This document shows, piece after piece, positions 3,274 through 55,565 of a stretch of 64,000 nucleotides of DNA. The DNA comes from a virus (taxonomy: Duplodnaviria > Heunggongvirae > Uroviricota > Caudoviricetes). Position numbers and translations under genes: made by a program. Under the pieces are notes generated by a model. It was not told the DNA's origin, did no database searches, and was given only the letters and a program-made list of their open reading frames with translations. The stretch is from the IMG/VR virus record IMGVR_UViG_3300006204_000001. The stretch is one strand, 5' to 3'. Numbering within the stretch: the first letter of the stretch is position 1; every line of letters starts with the position of its first letter.

Positions 3274-3335
3274 AGTTACTATCTCCTTTCTATACTTTGT
3301 TATATATTCGTATATGAAATATAAATTATAAATCT

Positions 3336-3374
3336 AAATAATTACTATATTTATTATAAATATAGTAATTATTT
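3336..3374. promoter_or_regulatory. 15-bp perfect inverted repeat (AAATAATTACTATAT-n9-ATATAGTAATTATTT) in divergent intergenic region
   Basis: Read directly: 3336-3350 is the reverse complement of 3360-3374; sits between divergently transcribed genes 2800..3273(-) and 3397..4035(+). Confidence 0.4.
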
Positions 3375-3396
3375 AGTATATTGGAGGTATAATAAT

Positions 3397-21584: not shown

Positions 21585-22748
21585 ATGAGTGAAGTTAGTT
21601 TAGCAATGGAAATGAATAAACTTAATAGTAGAATAGAAGAATTATTATCTAGAATAGATGAATTGGATAAAAAGGTAACTTCTATAGAATTGAATGAACA
21701 AAGATATCTTAAAAAGAATAATCCTATATCACCAGCTATGGGTATTAAAGTTGCTTATGATGAAAATGGTTTAATTAAAACATCTATGGGATTATTATCA
21801 TCTGATCTACCAGAGATTACTATACCATCTATTACAGGATTACAAGAAGTGTTGAATAATAAAGCTGATATTAATGATATACCTAATATAGATCATATTA
21901 AAATTCGTAGTAATAAAATTTATGCTACTGGTACTAAAATTAATTATGATGAGAATGGTTATATCATATCATCATCTGAATTATCTACAGATGATATTCC
22001 AATTTTACCCATATCAAAAATAGAAGGATTATCTGATGCTATAGAATTAGCTATGAGTATTAGTAGTAGTTATAATGCAAAACCTTTAGTAGAAGATTTA
22101 CCTCAGGAATCATTTCCTGCAGGAATATATACTAAAGTTAATATAGATAGTATGGGTAGAATAATTGCTGCATCTAATATTACTATAGAAGATATTCCTG
22201 ATGAATTAGTATCTAAAGTTAATGTTATAGAAAGTATGATACCTAATTTAGCTAGTCAAACATCTATAGATGGATTATCAGCATCATTAAATAATAAATT
22301 AGATAAAAATTTACCTGTAGAACCTGGTACATATACTAAAGTTACTATAGATAAACAAGGATTAGTTTTATTAGGGAAGAATTTAACTAAAGAAGATTTA
22401 CCTGATATCGGTATAGATGATATAGATGGATTAAGATTAGAATTAAATAATAAATCTACTATAGAACAATTTCATGATTTAAATGAATCTATGCAAATAT
22501 TAATGAGATCTATCAATGATATAGGTGATTTAATTAAACTTAAAAATGAATTACCTAAATTAGTTAGCGATGAAAAATTTAGATTATTGCAAGATGAAGT
22601 ATCATTATTACATTCTACATTTGATGAATTAAATGAAAAAATACCTAATGATACGATATTAGAGCAGTTAAAAGTAATAACTACTAATTTATCTAATTTT
22701 AATCAAAGATTATCAGTAATGGAAAATAAAATGGGAGTGACCGTATAG
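21585..22748 (+). CDS. coiled-coil protein with four ~45-aa internal repeats (fibre/needle-like)
   Basis: Repeats ..YDENGxI..S..L...DxPxI.I..IxGL..; N- and C-terminal heptad-like segments; RBS TAGGAGGAT. Confidence 0.55.
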   Translation: MSEVSLAMEMNKLNSRIEELLSRIDELDKKVTSIELNEQRYLKKNNPISPAMGIKVAYDENGLIKTSMGLLSSDLPEITIPSITGLQEVLNNKADINDIPNIDHIKIRSNKIYATGTKINYDENGYIISSSELSTDDIPILPISKIEGLSDAIELAMSISSSYNAKPLVEDLPQESFPAGIYTKVNIDSMGRIIAASNITIEDIPDELVSKVNVIESMIPNLASQTSIDGLSASLNNKLDKNLPVEPGTYTKVTIDKQGLVLLGKNLTKEDLPDIGIDDIDGLRLELNNKSTIEQFHDLNESMQILMRSINDIGDLIKLKNELPKLVSDEKFRLLQDEVSLLHSTFDELNEKIPNDTILEQLKVITTNLSNFNQRLSVMENKMGVTV

Positions 22749-22768
22749 GTCACTCTTTTTTACTTTTT
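22737..22768 (+). terminator. rho-independent terminator GTGACC-GTATA-GGTCAC + TCTTTTTTACTTTTT
   Basis: Perfect 6-bp stem incorporating the TAG stop, followed by T-run. Confidence 0.65.
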
Positions 22769-22844
22769 AATACAAAAAATAATTACTATAATAAATCTTA
22801 TAATAATTTTTATTATTTTTTCTTATTAAGAAATACTCCCGAGA

Positions 22845-22960
22845 ATTATTTTACGCAAATATTAGTAGATATATCAATATCTACTAATAGTAGTATGACG
22901 TAAATATCTTTAGGATTTTACGTCAAACTAACGTTTTACGTAAAATATATCATTTAAAAT
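22845..22960. promoter_or_regulatory. regulatory region: 28-bp perfect palindrome flanked by four TTTACG(T/C)(A/C)AA repeats
   Basis: ATTAGTAGATAT-ATCA-ATATCTACTAAT at 22861-22888; TTTACGCAAA (22849), TGACGTAAAT (22896), TTTACGTCAAA (22917), TTTTACGTAAAA (22934). Confidence 0.45.
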
Positions 22961-23105
22961 TTGACCTTTTGAAATGGCTAAAAAATTTGTGCGTTAAAAC
23001 GGCAGGTTCATATAAAAAGTATTTTTTATATGAATTTTATTTATATATTATAATTATATAGATACATATGTTATGTATGAATAAAAAGAAAGAGAGGTTG
23101 TAAAA

Positions 23106-23816
23106 ATGAGTAAATTTGAATTACAAGATAGAGTATTAATTAATACTTATCCTGAAAAAAGAAGAGGAACTATTGTAAAATATATTGAAGAAAATAATTT
23201 GTATCTTGTAGATATTGATAGTAAATTATGTGGTAATTCAATGTATAATATTAATTTATTTAAAGAGGATGAATTGGAAAAATTAAATATTATGGATGAA
23301 TATGTAGATAATAAATCAAAAGATTTATCTATATTTGAGGAACATGATGATTATCTTACAGAAATGGCAACTATTATATTTACCAATAAATATAATATTG
23401 CATTTAATAATGAGACTGATAGAGCTGGAATTGCATATTTTAAAGTATATGATAGCGGTAAAATCAGTACTGCAAAAAGAGTTGCTAGATTACATTTTAA
23501 AGATAGTGGAATGGAATATCATAAACATGATAGACTTAAAAAAGAGATATGGAAATTAACATTAAATGAGGCTAAAGAAATTATAGAAATATTAAAAATG
23601 CCTCATAAAGAACATGATTCATTATCAAATTGGGTTATTCTATGTTATAGATGGAATTCAGATAATGGATTAATTCCATATAATGCTACATTAAACTACT
23701 ATTTAAATGGTAAATTTGATCATCAAAAGTTCTTAGATGAAAGATTTGAGAAAATGTTTATTCCATCAGATACTCCAATTCCAGATCCATGGATATATAA
23801 TAATCTAAAGAAATAA
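23106..23816 (+). CDS. hypothetical protein
   Basis: 236-aa ORF, RBS AGAGAGG. Confidence 0.5.
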   Translation: MSKFELQDRVLINTYPEKRRGTIVKYIEENNLYLVDIDSKLCGNSMYNINLFKEDELEKLNIMDEYVDNKSKDLSIFEEHDDYLTEMATIIFTNKYNIAFNNETDRAGIAYFKVYDSGKISTAKRVARLHFKDSGMEYHKHDRLKKEIWKLTLNEAKEIIEILKMPHKEHDSLSNWVILCYRWNSDNGLIPYNATLNYYLNGKFDHQKFLDERFEKMFIPSDTPIPDPWIYNNLKK

Positions 23817-23832
23817 TAAAGGGGGATAATAA

Positions 23833-23994
23833 ATGTTTAATATAGGAGAAAAAGTAAATATTAAAAAAGAAGATGATAGTATAATCAACGGAATTATTAT
23901 AGATTACTATCCATTAAGTAAAAGATATTTAGTAAAGTTTGATAATGATCTATATCGTATGATATTAGAGGATTTTATAACAAGAAATGAATAA
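23833..23994 (+). CDS. small hypothetical protein (53 aa) resembling N-terminus of 23106 gene
   Basis: RBS GGGGGATAATAA; GEKVNIKKEDDSIINGIIIDYY ~ QDRVLINTYPEKRRGTIVKYI pattern. Confidence 0.35.
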   Translation: MFNIGEKVNIKKEDDSIINGIIIDYYPLSKRYLVKFDNDLYRMILEDFITRNE

Positions 23995-23996
23995 AA

Positions 23997-24037
23997 AATA
24001 AAGGGTGATTCAAATCACCCTTTATAATTATTTTTTT
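23997..24037. terminator. terminator AAAGGGTGATTCAAATCACCCTTTATAATTATTTTTTT
   Basis: hairpin + T-run. Confidence 0.65.
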
Positions 24038-24044
24038 ACAGATA

Positions 24045-24185
24045 TTAGTAACCTCTGTAGGTCCACCGTAGTTTTCGACGTCGGTCCGGTCTTCAATAGC
24101 TAATCGGGCACCGTGCAATAAGTGTTCCATAAAGTTACGCAAACTCTATGCGAAAGTCAGTTGTCCTCCTTAACGATAAATATTA
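24045..24185. other. GC-rich (~50%) non-coding block in convergent spacer - candidate structured RNA / element of unknown nature
   Basis: Composition sharply different from surrounding ~25% GC DNA; no ORF; local stems (ACCG..CGGT, CGCA..TGCG, GACGTC palindrome). Confidence 0.2.
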
Positions 24186-24310
24186 TATCTTAATAGATAA
24201 ATTACCTCGACTCCTATATTCATTTATCCAATATAATATCCACGACCATATGGGCTCACCATTATGGATTTAATTATTTATATACATTTTTAGAATATAT
24301 AATTTAATTA

Positions 24311-24919
24311 TTATGATATACGATTTAAAAGGATATCACCCAATAATGTTTTTACTTCTATTCCTTCATCCCCAATTAAATTAAACCACATCACATCTGA
24401 TATATCACTAATATGTTGATCTGTATTAAATTCAAGATATTCTCCTTGGTTATCTACTTTATGTGATCTGATAGTTACTTTAGTCCTATTAAAGAAGCTA
24501 AATGATACAATCTTTTTTAGATTAACCATATCATTAGTTGCTTTATATAAAATACATCTTAATCTATCATCTGATACTTCTATAACCCATTTAGGAAATC
24601 CTTCTGTATTATTACAGAATAACAATTTGAAACCTTCCATATTAACATCGCATTGATCAATATATAGAAATAAATCTGCAAATGTAATATTTTTTGTTCC
24701 TGTAATATTCATATAAATATCTTTTACATTATTAATATCCTGATTAGAATAGTTCATTAATCCATCAATAATATAATCCAAATTAAATTCTTTATTGTAT
24801 GAATTAATTTTAACTCCAGTAGTAGGAGTAACTAAACATACATTAATATTTCTCTGCCTAGCTAATTCCATAACTTCATTCATAAACTTTACTTCATTTT
24901 CATTCATTTCGATTTTCAT
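24311..24919 (-). CDS. hypothetical protein
   Basis: 202-aa ORF. Confidence 0.45.
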   Translation of the reverse strand: MKIEMNENEVKFMNEVMELARQRNINVCLVTPTTGVKINSYNKEFNLDYIIDGLMNYSNQDINNVKDIYMNITGTKNITFADLFLYIDQCDVNMEGFKLLFCNNTEGFPKWVIEVSDDRLRCILYKATNDMVNLKKIVSFSFFNRTKVTIRSHKVDNQGEYLEFNTDQHISDISDVMWFNLIGDEGIEVKTLLGDILLNRIS

Positions 24920-27433: not shown

Positions 27434-27557
27434 TATACTATTATTTCCTCCTATTGCATCTATTATAAATATAATATATAATTTAAGATTATATATTATT
27501 ACAATATAACGTATAATTATATACAATATTAATATTAAATTTAGGAGGTACTTAGTA

Positions 27558-28724
27558 ATGAAAAATGTAATGTTGATTGGTGTTGGTAACTGTGGATCTC
27601 AGGTTGCTTGTTTAGGAGAAAAATTATATCCTACCTTATTTGATGCAATGTATATTAATACAAGTAAAACTGATCTTTCTATGGTAACTGCAGAATCTGA
27701 ACTTAAATACAAAATTGGTTCAGATGAAGATGTTGAAGGTTCTGGTAAAAATAGAACTAAGATGCAAGAATATCTTGAGAAAGATATTGAAAAGATCTTA
27801 GGCGATGAAAAACTTGAAGATTCTATAATTGATAAGAGTTATGCATTTATTATTACAAGTGCAGCGGGGGGGACAGGATCTGGTGCTTCAACAATTCTTT
27901 ATGAATTTATGAAAGAAAAATTTCCTGATACATTCTTTATCTTAGTAGGTGTATTACCAAAACTTGATTCAACATCATTAATGGAACATGGTAATACATT
28001 AGAGTTTCTTGATGATCTTTATAGAGTATTAGGAGATAATGTAACATATATGCTATATGATAATGAATCAACTGCAAATATGGCAGATACAGTTGCATTA
28101 GAAACAGTTAACAGAAATATTATTGAGGATATTAGAATTCTTACAGGCATTGATAATCATCCTACACCATATGAATCTATTGATAAAGCAGATATGGAAT
28201 CTATAATTACAACACCAGGAAGATTACTTGTTGCAAGAATTAATAAGAATCTTACAGAAAAGAATCTTGAAGATAATAATATTGATAATATTGTTATTAA
28301 AGCAATTAAAGATTCTTGCCATGTTGAGACAGATCGTAATAAACATGTTGTTAGATGGGGTATAATCACATATTTTACAAATGAAGTATATCAGCTGTAC
28401 AAATCATCTTTAACTGCAGTAACAGAATTTTTAGGAATACCTAAAGAAAGATTTAATCATAATGCAATTAATAATAAGGATGAATCATTGTCATTTATGT
28501 ATATGATTGCATCCGGTTTGTCACCTATTAATGATAGGGTAAAGAAAATTACATCAAGAGTAGAATCATTACAAAAGACTTTACCATCTGAAGATACTAA
28601 CAAATATATTCTTGGAGAAGGTGTTTCATATGGAATAATGGAAGAAAGAAGAAAACAGGTAAGAAGAGAAGCTGCTCCATCTGAAATTAATAAAAGTTCA
28701 GTATTTAATAAATTTAAGAAATAA
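27558..28724 (+). CDS. tubulin/FtsZ-superfamily GTPase (phage PhuZ/TubZ-like)
   Basis: N-terminal LIGVGNCGSQVA glycine loop and tubulin signature SAAGGTGSGAS (GGGTGSG); RBS TAGGAGGT. Confidence 0.8.
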   Translation: MKNVMLIGVGNCGSQVACLGEKLYPTLFDAMYINTSKTDLSMVTAESELKYKIGSDEDVEGSGKNRTKMQEYLEKDIEKILGDEKLEDSIIDKSYAFIITSAAGGTGSGASTILYEFMKEKFPDTFFILVGVLPKLDSTSLMEHGNTLEFLDDLYRVLGDNVTYMLYDNESTANMADTVALETVNRNIIEDIRILTGIDNHPTPYESIDKADMESIITTPGRLLVARINKNLTEKNLEDNNIDNIVIKAIKDSCHVETDRNKHVVRWGIITYFTNEVYQLYKSSLTAVTEFLGIPKERFNHNAINNKDESLSFMYMIASGLSPINDRVKKITSRVESLQKTLPSEDTNKYILGEGVSYGIMEERRKQVRREAAPSEINKSSVFNKFKK

Positions 28725-28772: not shown

Positions 28773-28802
28773 TGTATGAATAAAATAAAAAGGAGAGAAG
28801 AG

Positions 28803-31178
28803 ATGTTAAAAACAATTGAGAATGCTGTAAAGGGTTATGTTGCTAATAAAATAGTTAAAACAGTATTAACCCCATTAGACACAATAGTAGATCAAAATAT
28901 AATGGATGTAACAACTACTATTGGATCATTTATCGTTAGAAGCGTACGAGGAAAATTTCAAAGGTCTATAACATTTACAATCGGAAATCATTATGCAGAT
29001 AGATGGATGGAAGAAGCTTTATATGGTATTTTGTATAAATACAACAATATCAAAGGTTCCTCTAGATTAGAATTAACTAATAAAGCTGGTATGTCTGATG
29101 GAACTGGAATTTATTATAGACTGGATGATGGTACACATAATCTCAAATATAGAGATTATAATATTTTATTAGGTATATCAACAAGTACTACTCCACTGAC
29201 ATCTGGAAGATCAACACAAGCAAGAATTTATACAGTGATAACTTACGATTTAGATCCAAAATTTATGGAACTATTTGAAAAAGATATGATAGAACACAGA
29301 AATTCTTTATTACAAATAAAGAAGGATAGCCCAGTGGTAAATGTTTATAAAGATTATCATGAATCTGATGGTTATACTTACTGGGAAAAAATGATGACTA
29401 TAAATAAAAGAAAAATAGGTACGGTTTATCTTCCTTATGATCAGAAAAAGAAGTTAGTGGATACCATCAATAATTTCTTTAGTAATAAGGAATATTATAA
29501 AGAACATGGAGTTGCTCATAATCTCAAGATACTTCTTTATGGACCTCCTGGACCACAGCCTGAATCAACTAACATTCCTAATCCAGATGGATGGGATAAA
29601 TTAATGAAAGATTTTAAACCTGGGGACAAAATATTTACAGAAGATGGTTCAATAACAGAAATAGAAGATATAAGAAAATATGAACCTATGGATGTATATA
29701 AAATATATTTTTCAGATGGATCATTTACAAGATGTGCATTGACTCATAGATGGAATATTATACAAAAAGATGGCTCAATTGTTGATAATTCTGTTGAAGA
29801 TATTATTAATTATCTTGGTACTACTAAAGATAATATAACAACATTTGATAATGATTTGTATGTACCAATGGGAGCAGAAGTTCAATATGATCATTCTACT
29901 AATTATAAAAATCTACATCCATATGTTATTGGAATATTAGCTATATGTGGAAGATTTATTGGTAATAATACTAATAAAAAAGTTTGCATTAATACAACTG
30001 AATCTGAAATTTTATATTATTTAAGACAATATTTCCCGTTAGATATATATTTTGAAAAATATGATGATAACAATAATTGGATCATGATGAATAATTGCAA
30101 TCCAGTTTATTTGGATGAATTATTAAAAATAATTCCTCCTGGAATGGTTGTATATAATAATTCAGATGGTTGTGAAACGATTCCATCTAATTATTTATAT
30201 GATGATATTATGACCAGATCTGAATTATTATCTGGAATAATGGATACAACAATTACTGATATAATTAAAACTGATTTGCAAACAATTTTAACATTATCAT
30301 TTCCAACACCAAATTTATGTTTAAGTACTAAACGGTTGATGAATAGTTTAGGAGTTAGACCAACCTTTGTTGATGCTACTACATTAACAGTTGTATGTAA
30401 TTCAAAGGTTTATTCATTTATAAAATATAGCAGTAAAAAGAAATTAATAACTCTTAAATACGATTTAACAATTCCTAATTATGTAAGGAATGCATCATGC
30501 GAATCTGATTCTGTAGTAAAAATTGAACGCATTGAGAAAACAAATGAACAGGAAGCTATGATATGTTTTCATGTCAAAGATGAATCTCATACCTATATTA
30601 CGGAAAATTTTATTTCTACTTGTAATACAGGTAAAGATTCTATTGCAAAAATGATTGCATCAGAATGGAATAGAAATATTTACTATATTACAGGTGGTAA
30701 AGATGGTAACTTTATTCCAAATGCAATTACAGATTCTGATACAGATGATATTAATTACCCATTAATGTTAATATCAGATATTGATAAATATCCAATGTTT
30801 ATCACGGAACCAAAAGATCTTGATGAAAATAGTGATTCTGGCAAAGCAGAAAAAGTTGCTTGGAAACAAAAATTTGGATCTATGATAAATGCCTTAGATG
30901 GAATACTGTCAGGCGAGGATAGAATTATTATAATGACAACTAATCACATTGAAAAGTTTTCTGAAACATTTAGAAGACCAGGTAGAATCGATTTGGAATT
31001 ATTAATTGATTATGTAACTCCAGAGGTATTTAGGAAATTTATATATGATAATTTTAATTATGAATTACCTAAAGATATTAAATTAAAAGATGACAAATTA
31101 ACTATTGCTAAAGTTCAATTTGATATTATGTTCCAAAAGATGACAGTAGAAGAAATTATAAAGAAATATATAAAATAA
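28803..31178 (+). CDS. BCS1-like AAA+ ATPase precursor containing a 358-aa intein-like insertion in the Walker A loop
   Basis: FFSNKEYYKEHGVAHNLKILLYGPPG | insert | TGKDSIAKMIASEW ; sensor-1 IIIMTTNH; SRH box RPGRIDLEL; RBS AAAGGAGAGAAGAG. Confidence 0.75.
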   Translation: MLKTIENAVKGYVANKIVKTVLTPLDTIVDQNIMDVTTTIGSFIVRSVRGKFQRSITFTIGNHYADRWMEEALYGILYKYNNIKGSSRLELTNKAGMSDGTGIYYRLDDGTHNLKYRDYNILLGISTSTTPLTSGRSTQARIYTVITYDLDPKFMELFEKDMIEHRNSLLQIKKDSPVVNVYKDYHESDGYTYWEKMMTINKRKIGTVYLPYDQKKKLVDTINNFFSNKEYYKEHGVAHNLKILLYGPPGPQPESTNIPNPDGWDKLMKDFKPGDKIFTEDGSITEIEDIRKYEPMDVYKIYFSDGSFTRCALTHRWNIIQKDGSIVDNSVEDIINYLGTTKDNITTFDNDLYVPMGAEVQYDHSTNYKNLHPYVIGILAICGRFIGNNTNKKVCINTTESEILYYLRQYFPLDIYFEKYDDNNNWIMMNNCNPVYLDELLKIIPPGMVVYNNSDGCETIPSNYLYDDIMTRSELLSGIMDTTITDIIKTDLQTILTLSFPTPNLCLSTKRLMNSLGVRPTFVDATTLTVVCNSKVYSFIKYSSKKKLITLKYDLTIPNYVRNASCESDSVVKIERIEKTNEQEAMICFHVKDESHTYITENFISTCNTGKDSIAKMIASEWNRNIYYITGGKDGNFIPNAITDSDTDDINYPLMLISDIDKYPMFITEPKDLDENSDSGKAEKVAWKQKFGSMINALDGILSGEDRIIIMTTNHIEKFSETFRRPGRIDLELLIDYVTPEVFRKFIYDNFNYELPKDIKLKDDKLTIAKVQFDIMFQKMTVEEIIKKYIK
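29553..30626 (+). mobile_element. intein-like (Hint + degenerate LAGLIDADG) element, in-frame
   Basis: Block-A-like DKIFTEDGSITEIEDI, block B CALTHRW, LAGLIDADG-like YVIGILAICGRF, C-terminal ..HTYITENFISTCN followed by Thr; exact restoration of GPPGTGKDS on removal. Confidence 0.55.
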
Positions 31179-54759: not shown

Positions 54760-54796
54760 AAAGAGTGGGATATAATTCTCACTCTTTTATTTTTGT
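54760..54796 (+). terminator. terminator AAAGAGTGGGATATAATTCTCACTCTTTTATTTTT
   Basis: hairpin + T-run. Confidence 0.6.
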
Positions 54797-54815
54797 TGTT
54801 AAAGGAGAAAAGTAT

Positions 54816-55565
54816 ATGGGAAACAATAATGAGTTAAAATATATAACAGAAGAAGAATTAGATAAAATTTTTAAATTTTGGCCATTTAATTTATTACATG
54901 AAATATTTGGTGTAAATATTGATTGTATCTATACGAATATTAATAATATTCATACAGTATTAACAGCACCTGATTTGTTAAGTGAAAAAGAATTAGATGT
55001 AATATTATATAGATTTAAATCATATATGATATTTAGTGATATTGCAAAAAAGGTGAATGTTACTAAACAAAGAGTGACTGAATTGCAAAATCATGCAATA
55101 TTTAAGTTAAGAAGAATAATGAATTTCGATTTGAAGAGCATTGATTATAGAACGTATAACGAGATTAATGGAAAATATAATACATTACTTAAATCATATA
55201 AAGAATTAGAAAAATATGAAATCATAGGAGAGGATATAAAGGAAAAAAATAAATCTGAAATGTATAAAGACATTAATATTGCAACTTTAAGACCAAAAAT
55301 GTCTAATAGGTTGTTTAATTGTTTATATAGAGGAGATATATATACAGTATATGATCTAATTAATATGGATATTTATAGAGCTATGAAAATTAGAAATTTT
55401 GGTTTAAAAACTTTTGAAGAATTATTAGTAATTCTTAAAGCAAATGATTTAACTTTAAAAAGAGTAAGAAATAGAAAATATGAATATGATGATATATTAA
55501 ATGCTTCTAAATTATATATAGAATTAATTGGTAAATCACCATTTATAGAAGAGGAGGAAGAATGA
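54816..55565 (+). CDS. putative transcription factor: sigma-70 region-4-like HTH fused to RNAP alpha-CTD-like helix-hairpin-helix domain
   Basis: LSEKELDVILYRFKSYMIFSDIAKKVNVTKQRVTELQNHAIFKLRR ~ sigma region 4.2; LRPKMSNRLFNCLYRGDIYTVYDLINMDIYRAMKIRNFGLKTFEELLVILKANDLTL ~ alpha-CTD (LLRP..[9 protein letters not shown]...I.GDL....E.ELL...N.GKKSL.EI...L...GLSL); RBS AAAGGAGAAAAG. Confidence 0.6.
   Translation: MGNNNELKYITEEELDKIFKFWPFNLLHEIFGVNIDCIYTNINNIHTVLTAPDLLSEKELDVILYRFKSYMIFSDIAKKVNVTKQRVTELQNHAIFKLRRIMNFDLKSIDYRTYNEINGKYNTLLKSYKELEKYEIIGEDIKEKNKSEMYKDINIATLRPKMSNRLFNCLYRGDIYTVYDLINMDIYRAMKIRNFGLKTFEELLVILKANDLTLKRVRNRKYEYDDILNASKLYIELIGKSPFIEEEEE

Follow-up and report, generated by a model that had tools for sequence, protein, structure and literature searches.

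We have analyzed a window of 64,000 nucleotides (the whole stretch, a piece of which is shown above) from the virus record IMGVR_UViG_3300006204_000001 (Caudoviricetes), which is part of the 289-kb metagenomic contig Ga0081180_1000003 (JGI 3300006201). Our subject is an element in the 357-nt spacer 22749-23105, located between a tail-fibre-like gene (21585-22748) and a gene for a 236-aa protein (23106-23816). Judging from its sequence, the block 22817-22975 (~160 bp), conserved in a group of uncultured jumbo phages of ~290 kb related to AR9, most likely forms a non-coding transcription unit in its own right. The reading that we tentatively prefer is that of an orphan early promoter that would make a short structured RNA and that is flanked and overlapped by operator-like palindromic repeats. 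We favor it because the promoter is conserved, the block kept in a close relative corresponds to this promoter plus ~105-120 nt of transcript, no open reading frame (ORF) is present, and in distant relatives the module follows the terminator of an AAA-tubulin operon.

Conservation of the block and its probable leftward promoter

The locus L223 provided an informative close comparison (L-numbers are the labels of the compared loci, i.e., L001-L005, L013-L015, L223, L224, L229-L236 and L249, with L229 being the same as L224). Its genes are ~96% identical to those of the window at the DNA level, and the spacers flanking the element are only 75-88% identical and contain indels; the AT-rich tract at 22758-22816, for instance, is 88% identical, also with indels. 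The block 22817-22975, which comprises the promoter, boxes, hairpins and left motif described below, differs by a single change (1/144), G22914A, located in the loop of hairpin B. It spans from ~40 nt upstream to ~105-120 nt downstream of the predicted leftward start. By this test of conservation the element is functional. In the same relative, genes 23106 (236 aa) and 23833 (53 aa) are deleted or degenerate, and a second inverted repeat (23007-23034) and the promoter at 23040 have decayed. The element therefore does not depend on gene 23106, to which an earlier note on this DNA, made from the sequence alone, had tied it. The same note had proposed a dedicated cis element and not a plain promoter, and this is borne out: the element is unique in the 83.5 kb searched (the window plus 19.5 kb of flanking genome), it is better conserved than the spacers in L223, and it is kept in distant relatives. 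Relatives at 99% identity (L001-L005) were uninformative.

A motif recurring upstream of genes was found across the window, WT[G/T]ATATATT[C/A/T]T, with T[G/A] following after five bases. There are 24 matches to this early-type motif in the 83.5 kb, and 20 of them sit 30-100 nt upstream of a gene start on the same strand. It resembles the early promoter consensus of phage AR9, experimentally defined as AAATATATATTAT-(6N)-G (PMC5312081). Both TTTATATATTAT, at 23040-23051, and ATGATATATTTT, at 22953->22942 on the minus strand, match the motif. From its sequence and position, the former is likely the promoter of gene 23106. The latter points left into the boxes and hairpins, and no ORF of at least 20 aa lies downstream of it. 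It had been overlooked in the earlier note, as had been the inverted repeat formed by boxes b2 and b3, the pairing of b1 with b4 and inverted repeat 2. On reading the spacer 22749-23105 we saw no late promoter of the AR9 type (AACA-N6-TA), and inspection by eye of the regions upstream of genes lacking the early motif gave no clear second promoter class. The features of the spacer are the following.

22733-22757, both strands: bidirectional intrinsic terminator found by the terminator scan, spanning the stop codon of the tail-fibre-like gene 21585-22748
22758-22816: variable AT-rich tract, ~9% GC; in the duplex stability profile of the window it ranks in the bottom five of the 60-80-bp stretches
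22825-22936, minus strand: predicted non-coding transcript in its minimal form, deduced from the promoter, the block boundaries and the U-rich tracts that follow the left motif in relatives; it may reach the terminator near 22725
22838-22848: left motif CCCGAGAATTA (consensus CC..TAGAAT), which in minus-strand reading is a short motif rich in G/C with U-rich sequence after it
22849-22860: box b1, TTTTACGCAAAT, left terminal repeat, pairs with b4
22860-22889: hairpin A, 13-bp arms and an asymmetric ATCA spacer
22891-22930: hairpin B, arms TAGTATGACGTAAA and TTTACGTCAAACTA (boxes b2 and b3), TTTAGG in the loop
22894-22905: box b2, TATGACGTAAAT, in opposite orientation; it reads TTTGACGTAAAT in close relatives
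22916-22927: box b3, TTTTACGTCAAA, pairs with b2
22934-22945: box b4, TTTTACGTAAAA, a perfect 12-bp palindrome, right terminal repeat, overlapping the start region of the leftward promoter
22953->22942, minus strand: early-type promoter core ATGATATATTTT, a match to the 12-nt core that overlaps box b4; predicted start ~22935
22987-23016, plus strand: sigma-70-like TTGTGC-18-TATAAA, missing from the list of consensus matches
23007-23034, plus strand: inverted repeat 2, TTCATATAAAAA-GTAT-TTTTTATATGAA (12-4-12) and then TTTTATTT
23040-23051, plus strand: early-type promoter core TTTATATATTAT, position weight matrix (PWM) score 22.6, N5 and then TA, predicted start ~23058, 63 nt upstream of the ATG of gene 23106

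Under the reading that we prefer, the promoter at 22953->22942 would belong to the class used by the RNA polymerase that the phage itself injects. It would fire leftward from ~22935 through hairpin B (b3:b2), hairpin A and box b1. The 3' end of the transcript would be one of two, near 22825, where a U-rich tract accompanies a short G/C motif, or at the bidirectional terminator 22757-22733, which adopts a hairpin in the predicted folds. The product would be a highly structured RNA of ~105-200 nt without an ORF, and the outer boxes (b1 and b4) would act as operator-like sites for a phage-specific dimeric protein controlling the promoter. As in a phage small RNA (sRNA) gene, an early-type promoter motif is followed by no ORF and, 180-200 nt downstream (within ~250 nt), by a bidirectional terminator. 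Intergenic sRNAs have been documented in the jumbo phages 201phi2-1 and phiKZ (PMC11512511).

The affiliation of the phage comes from its genes. The window codes for tubulin, primase, an AAA protein, topoisomerase II and a family-B DNA polymerase, together with split multisubunit RNA polymerase beta/beta' subunit families that are typical of phiKZ/AR9-type jumbo phages. The nearest isolates by DNA polymerase are Staphylococcus jumbo phages and Bacillus AR9/PBS1, at ~26% identity. This is a jumbo phage distantly related to AR9/PBS1; a DNA search of GenBank phages with 5 kb gave zero matches. The GC content of the window is 26%, CpG is strongly depleted (0.71 per 100 nt) and no tRNAs were found in it.

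Nested inverted repeats and their counterparts in distant relatives

The earlier note had described a perfect palindrome at 22861-22888. The sequence ATTAGTAGATAT-ATCA-ATATCTACTAAT is there, but it is an inverted repeat with a non-palindromic spacer of 4 nt, and its arms extend slightly further, to 22860-22889 (hairpin A). The four TTTACGYMAA-type boxes of that note are all present, between 22849 and 22945, and have an ACGT core. Boxes b2 and b3 form an inverted repeat with 14-bp arms, perfect in L003-L005, and b1 and b4 pair as an outer stem (P1); in other words, every box is an arm of one of two inverted repeats, b1:b4 and b2:b3, nested around hairpin A. The segment 22847-22947 folds into a three-way junction of P1, hairpin A and hairpin B, as RNA or DNA and on either strand, and the fold z-scores of the element range from -6.5 to -8.7. 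Hairpin A was considered as an intrinsic terminator and rejected, with 2 of its 13 pairs being G-C, no T run following on either strand and no report of it by the terminator scan. An Rfam search of the whole window gave nothing at the gathering threshold, and at E<=1 the region 22700-24350 returned weak terminator-like matches only. Inverted repeat 2 is situated where terminator hairpins precede other promoters in this genome.

A motif search over the 83.5 kb found the boxes clustered at the element and not scattered at random. The pattern TT[TG][AG]CGTAAA occurs in the window at the element only, with zero further copies in the 19.5 kb of flanking genome. The looser TKACGYMA has 12 strand matches in the 64 kb against 3.85 expected, a number reached in 0/100 shuffles, and 4 of its 7 sites fall in a stretch of 93 bp. 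The CpG density of the element is ~6 times the window mean.

Distant relatives were located through orthologues of the tail-fibre-like protein in other contigs of ~270-290 kb. The proteins of L229, L230, L231/L232, L233 and L234 are 33-40% identical to that of the window, and in these five relatives the module lies directly after the stop codon of the orthologous gene. Read on the minus strand, it comes after the terminator of the AAA-tubulin operon. The left motif CC..TAGAAT is found at the left end of the element in the window, L231, L229, L230, L233 and L234. The right end, ...ATATAT(A/C)AT(T/C)GAAAA, is common to all the modules and corresponds to the minus-strand promoter motif with its T-rich upstream part. 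L231/L232 has 72.8% identity to the window block over 136 nt (E 9e-12) and shares its TTTACGTAAA box, and L231 also has the TTTAGG loop of hairpin B. The ATAT-ATCA-ATAT center of hairpin A is kept in L231 and L229, where the outer arms differ and still pair. The relatives repeat their own box 3-6 times, in both orientations; the boxes by lineage are the following.

window and L231/L232: TTTACGTAAA
L229: CATACTATG
L230: ACATGTATAGACA
L233: CATGTA / GTACG
L234: ACATGTTATGT

In all six lineages, what follows the left motif can pair with what precedes ATATAT, through complementary sequences that differ by lineage. These terminal runs are exact over 8-16 nt, and a run as long as the observed one was reached in 0-110 of 5000 shuffles. 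P1 and hairpin A were recovered by RNAalifold along with part of hairpin B, and in eight pairs both sides had changed; this covariation comes from ~5 independent lineages, with L230 and L233 aligning poorly.

In one of these relatives (L224) the AAA-tubulin operon directly abuts the element. The corresponding window segment 24311-31178 (tubulin, AAA protein, primase and three unknown genes) is inverted with respect to L224 7412-13164. The AAA protein beside the tubulin gene (28776-31178, plus strand) has the mitochondrial BCS1 translocase as nearest match (E 1e-15 to 1e-18). It has 800 aa in the window and 432 aa in L224 (7412-8710), and its AAA matches are split, which suggests an insertion or fusion.

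Rival readings of the element

Several observations weigh against a unit that makes RNA from an early promoter. At its predicted start the site at 22953 has AA instead of T[G/A] (the dinucleotide after the core is TA in L229, L230 and L233, and AA in the window copy, L231 and L234), and it scores just 5.1 on the full-width PWM, partly because the sequence downstream is rich in CpG. Given this start and this score, internal evidence makes the promoter probable and not certain. By base composition, ~7 chance matches to the 12-nt core would be expected in 167 kb (both strands), ~1 of them intergenic. The more distant relatives L235, L236 and L249 carry only a terminator at that position and no element, and in the distant relatives that do have it, the minus strand continues without a canonical terminator, a short G/C motif being followed by U-rich tracts only. 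Neither strand folds better than the other, and the wobble (non-Watson-Crick) pairs favor different strands in different phages. Each phage also reuses one box in different stems, and from phage to phage the boxes change together, something that an RNA fold does not require. Finally, the best-supported helix, the outer stem P1 (b1:b4), falls outside the predicted RNA: since b4 overlaps the start region of the promoter, b1 and b4 cannot both be in the transcript. The outer boxes then most likely act on DNA. Concerted reuse of the box and a P1 outside the RNA are what would be expected from a dimeric, phage-specific DNA-binding protein, either a repressor or an initiator.

An initiator would fit an origin of replication, which we regard as the main rival explanation, though an unlikely one. 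The element would be a transcription-activated, iteron-type origin of the AR9-like clade (or another site where protein is loaded onto DNA), with boxes bound by a phage-specific initiator and an early promoter that opens the AT-rich tract. The origin of phage lambda consists of four palindromic iterons and an AT-rich region and is activated by transcription, and T4 oriF and oriG combine a promoter with an unwinding element; we know of no mapped replication origin for phiKZ/AR9-type phages. Here, at least four copies of one box are packed in ~100 bp, in both orientations and unique in the 83.5 kb. The box differs between phages and is homogeneous within each, as expected if it co-evolved with a binding protein, and the conserved promoter is aimed into the element. 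The flanking AT-rich tracts 22755-22834 and 23009-23089 rank within the five least stable stretches of the window; however, other promoter regions are equally AT-rich with the same or lower stability, and the tract is very short in L230, L233 and L234. Primase, tubulin and polymerase genes are nearby, but no initiator is found among the neighbors, which are the tail-fibre-like gene, the accessory 236-aa gene and, in the relatives, an AAA protein that is BCS1-like and not an initiator. Both the minimum of the cumulative GC skew and the least stable duplex map to ~27.5 kb, away from the element, and the skew follows gene orientation. L235, L236 and L249 lack the element despite having the same gene order. 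Of the earlier note's reading, the dedicated cis element stands, and an operator array and an origin would both agree with the sequence; its sigma-70 promoter and link to gene 23106 do not, and an origin here would have neither an adjacent initiator gene nor a skew switch.

A centromere-like partition site, similar to parS/ParB or to the tubC of TubZRC, through which an adaptor would link phage DNA to a tubulin filament, seems to us very improbable. Box b4 and its flanks match 12 of the 16 positions of the 16-bp parS consensus TGTTTCACGTGAAACA, but the boxes of L229, L230, L233 and L234 are unrelated to it, and no ParB domain was found among the 44 proteins of the window; an identity with parS was dropped on these two counts. 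The window does have a tubulin gene (27558-28724) and in the relatives the element is beside the AAA-tubulin operon. Its position there, however, is downstream of the operon, in the window the inversion has put 4.6 kb between it and the tubulin gene, and in neither the window nor L224 is the tubulin gene accompanied by a small TubR-like gene for a DNA-binding protein.

The plus strand offers another reading, improbable in our view, in which the three-way junction would be a structure in the 3' untranslated region (UTR) of the late tail-fibre mRNA, stabilizing or terminating it. It is only in a plus-strand transcript or in DNA that all three helices, including P1, are possible, and covariation of P1 is seen in six lineages. 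The distant relatives have no terminator between the tail-fibre stop codon and the element, but in the window a strong one does precede the element. The wobble pairs are divided, with the G-U pair in hairpin A of L231 pairing on the plus strand only and the b1:b4 helix of the window being better on the minus strand. A 3' UTR would leave unexplained the conserved promoter motif with its -40 region and the reuse of one box in multiple stems. A functionless remnant, either of a small mobile inverted-repeat element or of palindromes grown by template switching, appears very improbable. The terminal inverted repeats are indeed flanked by TA and the left end looks like the promoter end copied in inverted orientation and since decayed (AATTAT-TTTACG vs. 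AATTATATATTTTACG). Against it, the element is found as a single copy in 83.5 kb, at an orthologous position in six lineages, and with a conservation far above that of the flanking spacers that indicates purifying selection. The array of operators on a sigma-70-type promoter of gene 23106 envisaged by the earlier note is scarcely credible. Its hexamers do exist at 22987-23016, and the boxes are located upstream of that gene; however, such matches occur at chance density (37 found in the region vs. 30.6 expected) and the hexamers are probably non-functional. The phage has its own RNA polymerases and the recurrent early motif at 23040-23051. In L223, where the boxes are intact, the hexamers have been altered or lost together with inverted repeat 2 and gene 23106, and in the distant relatives the element has no plus-strand gene downstream.

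Known systems, neighboring genes and other loci

The orphan early promoter that we prefer can be compared with several known systems. Like the early promoters of AR9/phiKZ-like virion RNA polymerases, those of this phage have an AT-rich core, ATATATT(A/C/T)T, a putative start ~6 nt downstream and a presence at many genes, in a genome with split beta/beta' subunits. The differences are that the consensus here is WTKATATATTHT-N5-TR, that the starts are predicted from sequence, and that the copy at the element is joined to a palindromic box and leads into no gene. With the sRNAs of 201phi2-1 and phiKZ (PMC11512511) the element would share a short unit without an ORF, a phage promoter soon followed by a stop signal, and a position conserved relative to a tail gene. 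It has no sequence or Rfam similarity to them, however, and it lies antisense at the 3' end of a tail-fibre-like gene, with palindromic boxes and terminal inverted repeats. Copies of a phage-specific palindromic box beside AT-rich DNA, with a promoter firing in, are also features of lambda-type iteron origins and T4 oriF/oriG, but the element is without an initiator gene or skew switch, and its inverted repeats are nested instead of forming a phased direct array. The lambdoid OR/OL operators present several dimer-type palindromic sites over the start region of a promoter, varying in sequence by phage; here, in contrast, no repressor gene was identified, sites are also found ~90 bp away, inside the predicted transcribed region, and there is no lysogeny module in the window. 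In the homologous regions (hr) of baculoviruses, which act as enhancers and origins, boxes of the cAMP response element (CRE)-like TTTACGTAAA type are arrayed (L013/L014), but these loci come from a eukaryotic virus with LEF-8, LEF-2 and Ac75, and we take the likeness as one of motif and not of descent.

Scans of viral, metagenome and genome collections with a two-box pattern yielded (for the metagenomes, among the matches listed) baculovirus hr, tandem satellites of low GC content, and paired sites of no relation from Fibrobacter, Chryseobacterium and other genomes. Shared ancestry of these matches with the element was dropped. Arrays of TTTTACGTAAAA have arisen repeatedly and are thus not diagnostic by themselves. 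One locus, L015 (IMGVR_UViG_3300013094_000288), has at 300-540 an array of TTTTACGTAAAACTAAC(G/A)TAAA units at the start of a 23-kb viral contig, and it shares TTTTACGTAAAACTAACG with the window; an 18-nt string, with one mismatch, is common to the array and window positions 22916-22933. The 252-aa protein encoded beside this array had no family or phage match.

Jumbo phages with their own RNA polymerases are poorly understood beyond a few model isolates, and knowledge of their non-coding elements is scant. The module described here is a delimited conserved non-coding unit that maintains the same architecture over six lineages with differing repeat sequences. It makes it possible to test whether a regulatory RNA is made from an early promoter beside a late tail gene and which phage protein reads the lineage-specific boxes. 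If these were bound by an initiator or a repressor, the series of lineages would offer ready-made specificity swaps. A candidate transcription factor is encoded at 54765-55565 (plus strand), a protein of 266 aa with a Sigma-70 region 4 helix-turn-helix (residues 72-116) and an RNA polymerase alpha C-terminal domain (residues 160-225). It is an unusual fusion of two DNA-contacting modules and a possible reader of the boxes.

To the right of the element, the genes for 236 and 53 aa (window 23106-23994) make up an accessory cassette, which L223 (7400-7700) has lost or retains in degenerate form. The family of the 236-aa protein has a conserved core, PYFKVY...ARLHFKDSGMEYH, is multicopy in other large phage-like contigs, and gave no Pfam or PHROG match. 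Its homologues share with it either 98% identity or no more than 47%, synteny is lacking for the distant ones, and they were uninformative on the element. Scans of IMG/VR for close relatives with the 236-aa, 387-aa and 202-aa proteins found nothing.

Other sites of the window showed features of their own. Of all duplex stretches in the 64 kb, 27461-27540 is the least stable. The minimum of the cumulative GC skew falls on it, and the primase and tubulin genes have their early-type promoters there, back to back; the TTG start annotated for the primase (27526) is probably too far upstream. A perfect palindrome with 21-bp arms and a 1-nt spacer is found at 3334-3376, in a divergent intergenic region and without an early promoter core. 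At 29-1205 there is a homing-endonuclease-like ORF (GIY-YIG/HNH families), followed by a GC-richer stretch of 310 nt with nine CpG and no ORF, which may be intron-related.

A second orphan early-type promoter, ATTATATATTCT, was found at 24303->24292 on the minus strand, with a high matrix score and a TG start. The putative RNAs behind the two orphan promoters (22936->22724 and 24286->23990) have no similarity to each other. The second promoter is followed by a GC-richer stretch with 12 CpG and no ORF that ends at a bidirectional terminator (23998-24025). This stretch (23990-24303), which has no Rfam match, is 90.9% conserved in L223, where the neighboring spacer is scrambled, and it is a candidate for a non-coding RNA of ~270 nt transcribed from the minus strand.

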